Source: Escherichia phage Murica. From it: a stretch of DNA of 64,000 nucleotides. Within the stretch, counting starts at the first letter, position 1; the number at the start of each line of letters is the position of its first letter. Shown here in pieces: positions 60,714 through 64,000 of the stretch. Location: the sequence record NC_041871.1; one strand, given 5' to 3'. The notes under the pieces are model-generated. The model made no database searches and was not told where the DNA came from. It saw only the letters and a list, made by a program, of their open reading frames with translations. The position numbers and the translations under genes are program-made.

Positions 60714-60790
60714 TGGTCTCCACGGAGTGATTCGAACACTCGACCTCCTGATCCCAAATCAGGCGCTCTACCAAGCTGAGCTACGCGGAG
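60714..60790 (-). tRNA. tRNA-Pro (anticodon UGG)
   Basis: Hand-folded cloverleaf: 7-bp acceptor, D arm GCTC/GAGC, anticodon loop TTTGGGA, T loop TTCGAAT, encoded CCA. Confidence 0.7.
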
Positions 60791-60801
60791 TATTTATTAT
60801 T

Positions 60802-60876
60802 TGGTGGCCCTGGGTGGAATTGAACCACCGTCTGGCGATTATGAGTCGCTTGCTTGAACCTTCCAGCTACAGGGCC
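60802..60876 (-). tRNA. tRNA-Met or Ile2 (anticodon CAU)
   Basis: Perfect 7-bp acceptor GGCCCTG/CAGGGCC, anticodon loop CTCATAA, T arm GGTGG-TTCAATT-CCACC, encoded CCA; G1-C72 pair argues against an initiator. Confidence 0.65.
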
Positions 60877-60877
60877 T

Positions 60878-60953
60878 TGGTGCTGATGGCAGGACTTGAA
60901 CCTACAACCTATTGATTACAAATCAATTGCACTACCGATTGTGCTACATCAGC
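60878..60953 (-). tRNA. tRNA-Thr (anticodon UGU)
   Basis: Perfect acceptor GCTGATG/CATCAGC, anticodon stem ATTGA/TCAAT with loop TTTGTAA, T loop TTCAAGT, encoded CCA. Confidence 0.7.
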
Positions 60954-60958
60954 AAAAA

Positions 60959-61057
60959 GGTGCTAGGTGATGGAATCGAACCACCTATGTATTCAACGAC
61001 TACCTCGTCTATTTTCAGGATTAAAAATCCTCGCCCTTGCCAAAGGGCTTACCTAGC
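60959..61057 (-). tRNA. atypical tRNA-like element (99 nt): tRNA acceptor, D and T arms, but no canonical anticodon arm
   Basis: Perfect 7-bp acceptor GCTAGGT/ACCTAGC, D arm GCCC/GGGC, T arm GGTGG-TTCGATT-CCATC. The intervening 47 nt form two small hairpins (AGGAT-TTTTT-ATCCT and ACGA-GGTAG-TCGT). A Lys (UUU) reading needs a mismatched stem and a 29-nt variable region. Confidence 0.4.
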
Positions 61058-61154
61058 TCAGTATGTTGACCATGTTGCTAGTCGGCGATGACGACTGTAA
61101 CATTTGATAATCCGGTTCTGCTTCCGGCTTTCGCTTAATTACAAGGTCAACAAT

Positions 61155-61246
61155 GTGGCGGAGAGTAATGGAATCGAACCATCATCGAGTCATCCTCAAC
61201 GGGACGGTTTTCAAGACCGCTTGAGCACCATTGCTCCCTACCCTCC
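61155..61246 (-). tRNA. tRNA-Ser (anticodon UGA), type II
   Basis: 92 nt, acceptor GGAGGGT/ACTCTCC, anticodon stem GCGGT/ACCGT with loop CTTGAAA, long variable arm, T loop TTCGATT, encoded CCA. A TATAAT -10 lies 7 nt upstream. Confidence 0.65.
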
Positions 61247-61360
61247 TTTATAAATTATACTGATAATGACACTGATTTTCGAGCAGTTAGTGACTAGTAT
61301 AAACGACGATAAATATCAATGCCATTATCTGTATTATTTATGCATCTAAAAATATAAATT

Positions 61361-61447
61361 TGGTGGGGAGTGGTGGAGTCGAACCACCCGAGTCGCAATG
61401 ACAATAGATTTACAGTCTACACCGCTACCTCTACGGGATAACTCCCC
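61361..61447 (-). tRNA. tRNA-Tyr (anticodon GUA), type II
   Basis: 87 nt, acceptor GGGGAGT/ACTCCCC, anticodon loop CTGTAAA, T arm GGTGG-TTCGACT-CCACC, encoded CCA. Confidence 0.65.
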
Positions 61448-61451
61448 AATT

Positions 61452-61526
61452 TGGCACCCCGTACTGGACTCGAACCAGTGTCAACGGCTTAGAAGGCCGC
61501 TGCTTTATCCACTAAGCTAACAGGGC
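61452..61526 (-). tRNA. tRNA-Arg (anticodon UCU)
   Basis: Acceptor with two G-U pairs, D arm GCTT/AAGC, anticodon stem GCGGC/GCCGT with loop CTTCTAA, T arm ACTGG-TTCGAGT-CCAGT, encoded CCA. Confidence 0.6.
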
Positions 61527-61622
61527 ACTGGGTGGCTTTCTTTTACACCTTAGCCGCCAGAAAAGGTGGGAGACCATGTTTACAATATTACACTGTTAAG
61601 CAAAGTTTGTCAAGAAAATATT

Positions 61623-61961
61623 TTAGCTATTGCTAACAGGCTGTATTTCTGTAGTAAATGGCATAAAAGGTGCTGGTTTTTCAGCCTCTTCCACTACCAC
61701 CTCTTCCTCTTCACCAAACATCTCATCATATTCTTCCTGCATTCGGTCTGCCTTATCAAGAACATACTCTGCAATGCTTTGACGAATATTTTGTTTGGTT
61801 TTCGGGTCCAACATCAGCTCTCTTAAAACTTTGTGAGCTTCTGGAACCATCGCTATAAAAGATTCCTTCATATCAAGGATGTTCTTCTCTAGCTGAATGG
61901 CGTTGGACTCCTCTTTCAGAGGTCTGCCTCTACGGCGACGCTTTTTAGTTGTATCCGCCAT
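61623..61961 (-). CDS. small protein with basic N-terminus (KKRRRRGRP) and acidic C-terminal region (start trimmed to MADTTKK)
   Basis: ATG 61959-61961 with GGAGG RBS; the track extension upstream runs into a GC-rich noncoding island. Confidence 0.45.
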   Translation of the reverse strand: MADTTKKRRRRGRPLKEESNAIQLEKNILDMKESFIAMVPEAHKVLRELMLDPKTKQNIRQSIAEYVLDKADRMQEEYDEMFGEEEEVVVEEAEKPAPFMPFTTEIQPVSNS

Positions 61962-61989
61962 GTTTCCTCCATTATCACGTGATAGGTGG

Positions 61990-62230
61990 ATTTTATCATA
62001 GCAAATACTGATTGTCAAGTTCGCCGCAGGGTGGTATTCCCTGCGACTTGTCCAGCGTCCTGGACCAGCAAGACCCAACAAGTGGGTTACCAGAGCCCAT
62101 TACCGCACTTTGGCTCGACCTTATTACAGGTTGGCCGGGGTCACATCGTCATGTGCTGGCTGCCCCTACCATTTTAAGTGTGGTGCACTATCAAGCCCTC
62201 TAAGGGGAACTCAGCCTTCTCCGAACCCTG
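61990..62230 (-). other. GC-rich hairpin-dense noncoding island (candidate structured RNA or 5' leader)
   Basis: Perfect hairpins at 62026-62044 (GCAGGG/CCCTGC), 62050-62065 (GTCCAG-CGTC-CTGGAC), 62073-62087 (ACCCA/TGGGT), 62142-62155 (CACAT-CGTC-ATGTG); only short overlapping ORFs in all frames. Confidence 0.35.
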
Positions 62231-62305
62231 TTTCAAAGCATCCGGAGATAAAGCCATCAAATTCATCTTTAAATTGGATATTCATCATGATACACGAAAA
62301 CAACC

Positions 62306-62548
62306 TCATTGTAAAGCACAAATAAATAAAACATACTTAATTTGTTTGTTATCAGGCTCAGGGTAGAAGTAGAAGATCTTGCTATCACCGATCTGAACAC
62401 CACCATCCCAACAGCATAGCCCATAACCAGTATTCATACAAGCTAAGTCGTTGGCAAAATCTATTGCATCATCCAGTGCACGAAATTCACCTTCATCTTC
62501 TAAATAATCCTCATTCATGGAACGAAAAACGAGCTTAACCTTAAACAT
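62306..62548 (-). CDS. hypothetical protein, 80 aa
   Basis: ORF in track; weak RBS. Confidence 0.3.
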   Translation of the reverse strand: MFKVKLVFRSMNEDYLEDEGEFRALDDAIDFANDLACMNTGYGLCCWDGGVQIGDSKIFYFYPEPDNKQIKYVLFICALQ

Positions 62549-62624
62549 AGCATTACCTGTAGACCTCGTAAGTTAAAATTGCATCACATCATATTGCAGA
62601 TCTTATCAGGTAACACTATTTTTG

Positions 62625-62834
62625 TCAACAGATTCCGGCCTTATCCTTCCTGTCTGCGTATTCTTTAATCGCAACCTCATCTGCATTAGTGACCAGGTCT
62701 TCAAAGTAACTCTCAAGCTCCTCGTCAATGTCAGGAGACCAGCTCTTTTTCCTGTCAGTGTGAATTGCAGACTTGTTGAACTTATTACAGTTCTTTGCTA
62801 CCGGGTTGTTCATTAAGCGCTCCTCAGCGTTCAT
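62625..62834 (-). CDS. hypothetical protein, 69 aa
   Basis: ORF coupled to the upstream gene. Confidence 0.3.
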   Translation of the reverse strand: MNAEERLMNNPVAKNCNKFNKSAIHTDRKKSWSPDIDEELESYFEDLVTNADEVAIKEYADRKDKAGIC

Positions 62835-63402
62835 AGTAAATCTTATTTAACATTACCTCATCCTTTGCAGAAAGGATATCAAGATATGCATCACCAAATC
62901 TTCCTGCAACAACCTCTGCATGATACATCACTTCGTTAACATCGTCAAGAGTGATAACCGGATGACCATATCTTTCTGAATATTGTCTCAGGGTGCGATG
63001 TAACGAGTCGTCATCATATGCAGACTTTTTAATATCACAAACACGACGAATAGCCTTGATGTCGAAAAAACCTGTGCGATACCACCCAAGAAAAAGGTTT
63101 CGTGCAGTGTCAACATCTACATTGATACCATCAAGAACCTTATCTACAAGATAGCTGTCATCCTTTGGACCAGCGTCCTTAGTGCGAATGTAGTTGCCAT
63201 CTTTTCCAGGCGACATCTCCTTCTCATCCCCAACATGCATGCCATCATTTGGCGGTGTTAGCCACTTATCCGGATGCTTACGATCACGAGCGTTAGAATG
63301 ATTACGCTGGAAACCTGGCTTCCACTTGAAAGTTTTCTCCATCTGTTCTTCATTCTGATAACGTTTTGCAATCTTTTCACGGTCATCTTTGCGTGGACTC
63401 AT
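62824..63402 (-). CDS. hypothetical protein, 192 aa (first gene downstream of the regulatory region)
   Basis: ATG at 63400-63402 with GAGGAGG RBS; basic, Lys/Asp-rich. Confidence 0.45.
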   Translation of the reverse strand: MSPRKDDREKIAKRYQNEEQMEKTFKWKPGFQRNHSNARDRKHPDKWLTPPNDGMHVGDEKEMSPGKDGNYIRTKDAGPKDDSYLVDKVLDGINVDVDTARNLFLGWYRTGFFDIKAIRRVCDIKKSAYDDDSLHRTLRQYSERYGHPVITLDDVNEVMYHAEVVAGRFGDAYLDILSAKDEVMLNKIYYER

Positions 63403-63422
63403 AGCTGCCTCCTCTTCAAGTT

Positions 63423-63464
63423 ATAGAAAAACTCGCTGTATCGCTTTGTAACGAGCTTTTCTAT
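63423..63464 (-). promoter_or_regulatory. long hairpin in the 5' leader of the 62824-63402 gene
   Basis: ATAGAAAA-A-CTCG … CGAG-C-TTTTCTAT: 8-bp plus 4-bp stem around a 16-nt loop. Confidence 0.4.
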
Positions 63465-63509
63465 CAAACTGGTGCGATTGCCTTACTTGGTATAGTTTAT
63501 ATGGCTGTG

Positions 63510-63750
63510 GAGCGATTTAGGGGCCTCATTGTCCGTTTCCACACATAAACTTTATCCAAACTCGCGCGGGAGGCTCTCAACCGACTCCTTACGGCGCTGG
63601 CAAGCTTTCGTCGGTGGTCCACATTAGTGCTCGGCCTTTGGCCTGCGCCGCTTCGCTCCCACACATGTTAACAGACCTGCATGTGTGCACTATGGAGGCC
63701 CGGCATCTCGCCCCTCGTAGGCGAGTGCCAATGAAGGGCCGACACTACCT
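63510..63750 (-). other. second GC-rich hairpin-dense noncoding island (candidate structured RNA or regulatory region)
   Basis: No ORF of 60 aa or more; hairpins at 63643-63653 (GGCC-TTT-GGCC), 63660-63687 (CACACATG … CATGTGTG, 8 bp), 63707-63725 (CTCGCC-CCTCGTA-GGCGAG). Confidence 0.35.
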
Positions 63751-63772
63751 ATAGAAAGTAATAAATTTAAAA

Positions 63773-63842
63773 CATGGTACTTAGGATCTAGTATATTCTA
63801 CATAAGTTAAGTATATGTACTTAGTACCATAAGTACTAGATC
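63773..63842. repeat. AT-rich cluster of short inverted and direct repeats
   Basis: GATCTAGTA at 63785-63793 and its reverse complement TACTAGATC at 63834-63842; GGTAC/GTACC; TACTTAG twice. Confidence 0.6.
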
Positions 63843-63884
63843 TTTTATTTTTTATTATTTAGTTATTTTAGTTATATTCTTTAT
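63843..63884. repeat. AT-rich tract with short direct repeats (AGTTATTTT x2), candidate DNA-unwinding or UP-like element
   Basis: Near-pure A/T run TTTTATTTTTTATTATTTAGTTATTTTAGTTATATTCTTTAT immediately beside the palindrome array. Confidence 0.5.
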
Positions 63885-63967
63885 GTGTCCGTATCACGGA
63901 CAGTTAGTGTCCGTATTACGGGCAGATGTGTCCGCGTGACGGACAGTGGTGTCCGTATCACGGACAG
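63885..63967. repeat. array of four 19-bp palindromic repeats at 21-22 bp spacing (candidate operator or iteron array)
   Basis: 63885-63903 GTGTCCGTATCACGGACAG; 63907-63925 GTGTCCGTATTACGGGCAG; 63928-63946 GTGTCCGCGTGACGGACAG; 63949-63967 GTGTCCGTATCACGGACAG. Core GTCCGT-N3-ACGGAC is a perfect inverted repeat in copies 1 and 4. Confidence 0.85.
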
Positions 63968-64000
63968 TTAATAGTTTCTGTTCCATGGTGAACATAAAAC

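Follow-up and report, generated by a model that had tools for sequence, protein, structure and literature searches.

The region studied here lies close to the end of the window, by which we mean the whole stretch of phage DNA analysed (64,000 nucleotides). All of the flanking genes are on the minus strand. In order of transcription, genes for an NTPase, a phosphoesterase and the small winged-helix protein gp79, all just past the window end, are followed by a noncoding stretch with a GC-rich island (island A). Next are gp81 and three small open reading frames (ORFs). A second GC-rich island (island B), gp85 and seven tRNA genes come after this, with spanin, terminase and structural genes last. 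Both islands are no more than 3 kb from the tRNA cluster, and on the same strand, while the terminase genes are about 4 kb from island A. The first-pass annotation, which placed island A upstream of the late/structural block, was loosely correct. Immediately upstream, though, are the winged-helix gene, four palindromes and an AT-rich spacer. These features, previously not tied to the island, provide the informative context. Coordinates are listed in Table 1.

Table 1. Features of the locus, ordered from the window end inwards
Feature	Position	Strand	Remarks
NTPase, phosphoesterase and gp79 genes	just past window end	minus	first in order of transcription
Four 17-bp palindromes, TGTCCGTATCACGGACA	63886-63966		21-22 bp spacing; iterons or operators
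AT-rich spacer	63751-63884		GC about 0.23; two GATC sites; inverted repeats rich in GTAC; may serve for unwinding or as a promoter region
Island A, conserved GC-rich element, predicted to fold	63522-63745	minus taken as sense	GC 0.54-0.61; two blocks match the plasmids
Helix domain P1	63697-63740	minus	outer GGCCC/GGGCC; inner GGCA-CUCGCC / GGCGAG-A-UGCC, including CTCGCC/GGCGAG (63707-63712/63720-63725)
Hairpin H2, CACACAUG...CAUGUGUG	63660-63687	minus	arms 63660-63667/63680-63687; 3' arm runs into UGUGUGGG (63665-63658), an rrn boxC-like 8-mer
Mini-hairpin GGCC-AAA-GGCC	63633-63643	minus	invariant in all phage copies
Helix P5 (ACCGAC/GUCGGU)	63580-63615	minus	arms 63615-63610 with 63585-63580, enclosing 24-nt loop GAAAGCUUGCCAGCGCCGNAAGGA
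13-bp A-tract/U-tract hairpin (42 nt)	63423-63464	minus	arms 63423-63435/63452-63464; ends 8 nt before gp81 ribosome binding site
gp81 gene	62824-63402	minus	ribosome binding site GAGGAGG; three small ORFs follow
Island B	61990-62250	minus	between small ORFs and gp85 promoter
gp85 promoter	62018-61990	minus	TTGACA-17-TAAAAT
gp85 gene	61623-61961	minus	112 aa
Seven tRNA genes	60714-61526	minus	
tRNA-like gene, 99 nt	60959-61057	minus	within tRNA cluster
Spanin, terminase and structural genes			last in order of transcription

The 381 bases around island A are 100% identical to those of Escherichia phage vB_EcoM-Pr121LW and have full-length matches in 117 Vequintavirus (rV5-like) records. Judged by its sequence, the window is an rV5-like coliphage (Vequintavirus). 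Note that 18 entries with the label 'Campylobacter phage' (MG0656xx) contain near-identical genomes of rV5-like coliphages, and that CP057073.1, a 137.6-kb E. coli 'plasmid', has the same island in a genome of phage size. These entries are probably mislabelled or contaminants.

Island A is distinct in base composition, as had been claimed. The GC content is 0.54-0.61 over positions 63500-63750, compared with 0.23-0.24 (63750-63900) and about 0.40-0.43 (63400-63550) on either side. The first-pass annotation also saw no credible ORF, and we agree. One open frame (63664-63497, minus strand) would encode 55 amino acids from a GTG codon and is open throughout the genus. Its variable sites are spread 14/16/16 over the three codon positions, with no third-position excess. 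Furthermore, the frame is truncated in L002, a divergent phage from IMG/VR, and lost in plasmid copies of the island, described below. In other relatives, the first hairpin has indels of 1 nt.

The island was present in all 117 Vequintavirus matches, with 88-100% identity. In the comparison with L002, the conserved block extends from about 63745 to 63522 and is ~92% identical as DNA, whereas identity falls to 81% for the gp81 protein. Directly upstream of the island, the AT-rich DNA of the window could not be aligned with that of L002. Island A is more conserved than the neighbouring proteins. It is annotated in none of the records that we fetched, and phage records outside Vequintavirus have no sequence similarity to it. 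In two other Vequintavirinae genera (Seunavirus EC152 and Mydovirus K45PH128C2) synteny is missing, and no deeper covariation was gained. Using a gapped pattern, we scanned metagenomes, where four of six matches were true, and GTDB genomes, which gave only chance matches in high-GC MAGs. Hence, the island family is narrow. A 19-mer match in another IMG/VR locus (L011) was rejected as a chance match inside a terminase gene.

Among complete E. coli genomes, no chromosome contains the island. Matches were instead found in circular plasmids of ~13 kb, and in one of 39.6 kb (NZ_CP043822) that may be a trimer. Further copies came from PLSDB and from a metagenome scan. The ~13-kb plasmids (loci L013-L019, L025 and L026; for example NZ_CP020521.1, 13,689 bp) encode major capsid, tape-measure and baseplate proteins, together with a few DNA-binding proteins. 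No terminase or portal gene is annotated, there are no tRNAs, and about 30% of the DNA is unannotated or noncoding. Two of the plasmid proteins are 48-54% identical to proteins encoded by the window. The island, which is the longest noncoding match between phage and plasmids, is conserved in two blocks at 84-85% identity, against about 50% for the shared proteins. Since the island is common to the phages and to these small phage-like E. coli plasmids, it is probably a shared handle for replication or transcription machinery, and not a gene. We found no paper on the ~13-kb plasmids, the Vequintavirus origin, noncoding RNAs of rV5-like phages, or the island itself.

In plasmids, the element is longer and modular. 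A module has one, two or three short hairpins and then (UC)UGUGUGGG, and the module count is variable. The boxC-like motif is repeated three to five times per plasmid element (four times in L025 and three times in both L015 and L026). Relative to shuffled sequences, the folding z-score of the plasmid element is -3.9, with RNA and DNA parameters alike. The surrounding features occur in the order: seven 19-nt repeats with a 23-bp period, AT-rich DnaA-box-like repeats, the element, strong sigma-70 promoters, two small ORFs, and a gene encoding a winged-helix protein. The latter (303 aa) has weak matches to phrog_428 and phrog_391 'replication initiation O-like'. Note that the sigma-70 promoters are all downstream of the element, with none upstream. 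Hence, the element is not an obvious mRNA leader in the plasmids. On the other side, beyond the plasmid repeats, there are TGTGTGGG motifs that no hairpin precedes. A symmetric, two-sided layout of single-strand initiation (ssi) signals is therefore not supported.

The first-pass annotation had proposed, from a high density of stable stems, that the island is a structured RNA (leader, small RNA or processing site) or a protein-recognised DNA structure. All of the hairpins named at that stage are present: the 8-bp stem CACACATG/CATGTGTG, CTCGCC/GGCGAG, GGCC-TTT-GGCC, and a 42-nt hairpin outside the island with 13-nt arms that are 92% complementary. The third was, however, misplaced by 10 positions (given as 63643-63653). 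The density of stems in the window copy does not exceed chance. Thus, compared with dinucleotide shuffles, the folding z-scores are -0.79 (minus strand) and -1.73 (plus strand) for RNA, and -1.84 and -1.52 with DNA parameters. Our case for structure is built on comparison of copies instead of folding energy.

Two helices show compensated pairing. Across the 15 pairs of P1, every cell (100%) is paired, compared with 35-47% in slid controls, and in plasmid L013 both partners of two pairs have changed (G-C to U-A). For P5, three of the six pairs are changed on both sides between phage and plasmid (A-U to G-C, C-G to U-A and A-U to C-G). Overall, 91.7% of P5 cells are paired, compared with 5-53% when slid, and none of 500 shuffles reached the covariation score. 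P1 and P5 together have five compensatory base-pair changes between phage and plasmid copies. The 24-nt loop enclosed by P5 differs between phages and plasmids only at the N position (U or G) of a GNRA tetraloop. Plasmids L018 and L026 have a different hairpin in the place of P5.

Of the three stems originally named within the island, only CTCGCC/GGCGAG, part of P1, is backed by covariation. The GGCC mini-hairpin never varies among phages and so is uninformative about pairing. The 8-bp stem, in hairpin H2, is only wobble-compatible; phages keep it, and in 9 of 12 one of its positions is U.G. Most relatives have 18 nt extra just 5' of H2, and their version of the hairpin (CAUACAUG/CAUGUGUG) has a U.G pair. 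Hence, the perfect 8-bp stem, which results from an 18-nt deletion confined to the window lineage, is partly a lineage artefact. The 42-nt hairpin hardly varies across all of the phage copies, in either stem or loop; it contains two G.U pairs in the minus-strand sense and aligns partly with plasmid copies. We rejected this hairpin as an intrinsic terminator; our scan of positions 61500-64000 called none, the loop is 16 nt, and the U-run is inside the 3' arm.

Within phages, we counted 45 G.U cells and 3 A.C cells, which favours folding of the minus-strand sense. The G.U pairs are in the weaker helices: H2, a long-range helix (P2), and the 42-nt hairpin. Conversely, pairing in P1, in P5 and in the unvarying GGCC stem is Watson-Crick, apart from the closing pair of P5, which is G.U or U.U in three phages. 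The short plasmid hairpins also read as uninterrupted Watson-Crick helices. The loops of the Watson-Crick stems are mostly 3-4 nt, with repeated C-GAA-G among them. The C-GAA-G loop is typical of very stable DNA mini-hairpins.

No Rfam family matches the island. At the gathering threshold, only tRNAs pass in the window. In a permissive scan, the best result over the island was rli43, with 24 bits against a threshold of 100, and the plasmid copy gave nothing in either mode. ARAGORN detected no tRNA or tmRNA within the island, and we found neither a sigma-70 consensus promoter nor a canonical terminator framing it. The original proposal is thus partly supported, through conserved and compensated pairing in two helices. 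We conclude, from comparison of the sequences, that island A is a real, unannotated and conserved element, likely folded as DNA or RNA.

We turn now to the DNA upstream. The palindromes occur four times, against 0.18 expected, and nowhere else in the window. The order of parts is fixed: winged-helix gene, four cognate 17-bp palindromes, 130-bp AT-rich spacer and island. The gp79 protein matches PHROG 12838 'replication initiation protein' (E = 5e-80), with remoter matches to phrog_8102 and phrog_428. Pfam matches are just below threshold, and PDB matches are to generic winged-helix regulators. The protein has 116 aa and only a DNA-binding domain. Coming from PHROG annotation and weak remote matches, the initiator label is a weak, annotation-level assignment. 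In L002, the protein in the gp79 slot is only 28% identical, while its neighbours gp77 and gp78 are 86-92% identical. Similarly, the palindromes are of the GATACATATTTGTATC type in L002, compared with the TGTCCGT type in other phages. In these comparisons, protein and palindromes are swapped as a cassette, in L002 and in plasmids, while the island stays. A constant part combined with swapped protein/site cassettes is a pattern known from origin or immunity modules.

The gp79 promoter is TTGACA-18-TATTTT, and we found no terminator between it and the island. The spacer has no sigma-70 match of at least 9/12, and one weak 8/12 match. Between 63774 and 63830 it does have two GATC sites and the inverted repeats ATGGTACTTAG/CTTAGTACCAT, which are rich in GTAC. 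Conserved in the genus and absent from L002, these features may be bound by another protein. The phage copy has no conserved DnaA box; a near-DnaA box at 63560 was discounted, since it is not conserved among phages.

Our favoured explanation, with a probability of roughly 0.4, is that island A is an origin-flanking, strand-folded initiation signal, working with a factor common to all of these replicons. In such a model, gp79 would bind the palindromes and the AT-rich spacer would open. The strand with its 5' end nearest the spacer, in the minus-strand sense of the window, would then fold into the conserved hairpins. This strand would be the lagging-strand template of the fork leaving the origin. 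Once folded, it would present the invariant 24-nt loop to a factor common to phage and plasmids. Candidates for this factor are primase, a helicase loader, or another part of the replisome. We infer that the region is an origin and that DNA, not RNA, is what folds.

Several observations favour such a signal. First, the order of parts is constant across three replicon types (the phages with TGTCCGT palindromes, L002 and the plasmids) that differ in DNA-binding proteins and repeats. Second, all copies have the folded strand with its 5' end towards the repeats and AT-rich region. Third, the greater identity of the island core, relative to the shared proteins, points to a partner common to phage and plasmids. 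Finally, covarying stems next to a fixed loop, and Watson-Crick stems with loops of 3-4 nt, also count in favour, as do the initiator matches of gp79 and of the plasmid winged-helix protein and the downstream location of the plasmid promoters. The weakness of the initiator label counts against, as do the lack of a conserved DnaA box in the phage copy, the insertion-free region of phage Bas54 described below, and the four palindromes, which, at 21-22 bp spacing, look equally like lambda-type operators.

The closest parallel is with ssi signals. These adjoin plasmid and phage origins; examples are the G4-type 'G-site' of plasmid R1, ssiA/ssiB of RSF1010 and the PriA-dependent pas of ColE1. In R1 and RSF1010, ssi signals act on the lagging-strand template of the departing fork. 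Like island A, they consist of a few hundred bases of strand-specific stem-loops beyond the AT-rich part of the origin, with the 5' end facing the origin. This geometry holds in both phages and plasmids, given the origin that we propose. Also like island A, ssi signals conserve structure more than stem sequence and serve replicons with differing initiators. The presence of several stable stem-loops kept by compensatory change, a feature of ssi, is matched by P1 and P5, which are 92-100% paired. There are also differences. The island has no match (E <= 10) to phage G4, other microviruses or known ssi elements. The CTG start triplet follows hairpins in plasmid copies only (hairpin-CCTG/TCTG), while the single CTG of the window island is inside the H2 loop. 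With no microvirus match, and no CTG 3' of the first hairpin in the window island, we rejected a G4-type ssi specifically. Furthermore, the host of the island is a large lytic myovirus with its own replisome, and a role for the island is predicted from sequence.

Iteron origins, such as lambda ori with O and RK2 oriV, provide a second comparison. The shared features are an initiator-type winged-helix gene beside at least three phased repeats (here four, and cognate), with AT-rich and then GC-rich DNA adjoining. The protein and its repeats also swap together between relatives. Unlike those of iteron origins, the repeats here are palindromes resembling lambda operators, and the protein has no domain besides that for DNA binding. 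In addition, the GC-rich part, at about 225 bp, is much longer and predicted to be folded, and origin status would follow only from the model above.

A second explanation, which we regard as a real possibility, is that the island acts in cis as a structured RNA within the gp79-gp81 transcript. It could be a leader loading host Nus factors or a phage factor onto RNA polymerase, as in rrn/nut/put-like processive antitermination, or an element for RNA stability or processing. Transcription would then pass the 42-nt hairpin and the tRNA cluster to enter the lysis, terminase and structural genes. The plasmids would copy the element to respond to the same factor. Consistent with this, the sense of the island is that of all flanking genes, and read-through from the gp79 promoter would meet no terminator. 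The dominance of G.U over A.C changes, the UUCG and GNRA loops, and the folded mid-operon island B beside the tRNA cluster, with its own compensated hairpins, all lean towards RNA. The arginine-rich start of gp85 (KKRRRRGRP) fits too. Conversely, the best-supported stems lack G.U pairs, triloops dominate, and Rfam has no match. Nor does a consensus promoter precede the element in phage or plasmids; the promoters of the plasmids are downstream.

The antitermination variant can be examined through its sequence motifs. The rrn boxC is UCUGUGUGGG (PMC10250234), while boxA is UGCUCUUUA in rrn and CGCUCUUA in lambda (PMC2724277). In the window, CAUGUGUGGG matches boxC at 8 of 10 positions, and the contiguous 8-mer, UGUGUGGG, is exact. 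This boxC core next to hairpins is a likeness to the rrn leader, lambda nut (boxB, boxA and boxC) and HK022 put. Note that the 8-mer occurs seven times in the whole window, against 2.8 expected, and that 3 of 100 shuffles reach seven. The plasmids go further, with exact boxC 10-mers and an exact 13-mer of the rrnB leader (CAAUCUGUGUGGG). Next to their boxC-like motifs are boxA-like motifs (GACUCUUUAGGCAAUCUGUGUGGG and ACGCUCUUUGUGUGGG; also CGCUCUUUG and GACUCUUUA). In these copies, CUCUUUA or CGCUCUUU is directly upstream of the boxC-like motif. A similar hairpin, CCACACAG...CUGUGUGGG, is in the promoter-proximal leader of the plasmid capsid operon, ~170 nt 3' of a strong promoter. Unlike rrn and nut, the window copy has no boxA of either type within one mismatch between 63400 and 63800, and no promoter directly upstream. 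In the plasmids, the spacing between boxA and boxC is 0-6 nt, compared with 18-19 nt, and the several boxC-like repeats exceed what a nut site needs. An 11-mer common to the island and rrnB boxB was dismissed as chance, since it is confined to the deletion variant found in the window and Pr121LW. If the island does act as RNA, it would represent a new family of phage RNAs, one that has copied motifs from the antitermination leader of ribosomal RNA.

It is improbable that the island is instead a double-stranded DNA site for phage machinery other than the replisome, such as a pac signal for terminase or a late-activator site. A satellite with capsid, tape-measure and baseplate genes, but no annotated terminase or portal, would need the packaging signal of its helper, and the island is the longest noncoding match between phage and plasmids. 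However, a duplex site gives no reason for compensated stems beside an invariant loop. In addition, the terminase genes are distant, and a second shared block of 24 nt, in an essential noncoding region of ~2.5 kb, is an equally good pac candidate.

Still less probable is an independent small RNA gene acting in trans, for example as a decoy for host defence or for an RNA-binding protein. There is a precedent in the rV5-like phage PhiTE, which has a pseudo-ToxI noncoding RNA locus (PMC3475682). Moreover, the plasmid copies, as arrays of short hairpins with a repeated motif, are sponge-like. Yet the island lacks both a promoter and a terminator of its own, its modules, unlike those of ToxI, are not sequence repeats, and no Rfam small RNA is similar. 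Finally, a decayed or horizontally acquired coding fragment, or a functionless GC-rich patch arising by chance, is very unlikely: the unremarkable folding energy of the window copy and the 55-aa frame that is open within the genus are outweighed by conservation exceeding that of adjacent protein genes, variable sites with no coding signal, the lack of E. coli chromosomal matches and the five compensatory pair changes.

Folded cis elements beside an origin or leader are of a known kind. What is new is the family, the hairpin-UGUGUGGG build, and the sharing between a lytic genus and plasmids. The rV5-like phages are widely used against pathogenic E. coli, and their origin and transcription programme are essentially unmapped. 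The locus is a concrete candidate for an origin or control region, with a modular design in which swappable protein/site cassettes accompany an invariant element that we predict to be folded. It also links the phages to small plasmids that encode capsid and tail proteins, seemingly undescribed as satellites, and so offers a handle on how a large lytic phage may be exploited. Indeed, the ~13-kb plasmids look like undescribed plasmid-borne satellites or mini-phages of Vequintavirus. A bolder version, which we consider doubtful, is that they form an undescribed satellite family of rV5-like phages with island A as the cis link to helper machinery. That machinery might be a priming apparatus of helper or host at the origin, or an antitermination complex, mimicking rrn boxA/boxC, for long untranslated or late transcription. 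If so, the hairpin-UGUGUGGG arrays would represent a new class of signal associated with origins or leaders.

Other noncoding regions deserve mention. The phages have a region of ~2.5 kb, outside the window, between convergent gene blocks (L030 1-1400 and L032 3972-5076; the ends of MH752840). Within it are four copies of the repeat CTCTTCAGG and three of the motif TGTGTGGG, one of which is part of GGCTCTTCAGGTCTGTGTGGG, along with a hairpin module that resembles the plasmid ones. Its 24-nt block is 96% identical to all three plasmids checked. For Bas54, a member of the Vequintavirinae, a HIDEN-SEQ preprint describes an intergenic region of roughly 2 kb, different from that of island A, without transposon insertions (10.1101/2025.11.20.689424). 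The insertion-free region corresponds to the ~2.5-kb region and could be the real origin.

Islands A and B can also be compared with the T4 species 1 and 2 RNAs. These are stable RNAs encoded beside the phage tRNA cluster. As in T4, both islands are GC-rich, structured and noncoding, near a tRNA cluster, and on the same strand. Unlike the T4 RNAs, island A is tied to a palindrome/AT-rich module, shared with plasmids that have no tRNAs, and recognised here by sequence. Island B is 93-99% conserved and absent from the plasmids, with a folding z-score of -2.83 and no match in Rfam. In L002, two of its hairpins are compensated (GUCCAG/CUGGAC becomes GCUCAG/CUGAGC, and ACCCA/UGGGU becomes UCCCA/UGGGA). 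A by-eye likeness to the RNase P specificity domain (GUGCGGUAA and CUGGUAAC) was set aside, as Rfam does not support it. Downstream, gp85 has a near-consensus promoter of its own. The KKRRRRGRP sequence at the N-terminus of gp85 is an arginine-rich motif or AT-hook, and the protein has an acidic tail. Hence, gp85 could be an RNA- or DNA-binding regulator. Within the tRNA cluster, one tRNA-like gene of 99 nt is odd. ARAGORN assigns an anticodon of four bases (atcc), and the Rfam tRNA score is only 35.5 bits. The gene is conserved in L002, and its annotation in relatives is tRNA-Lys, 'OTHER' or missing.
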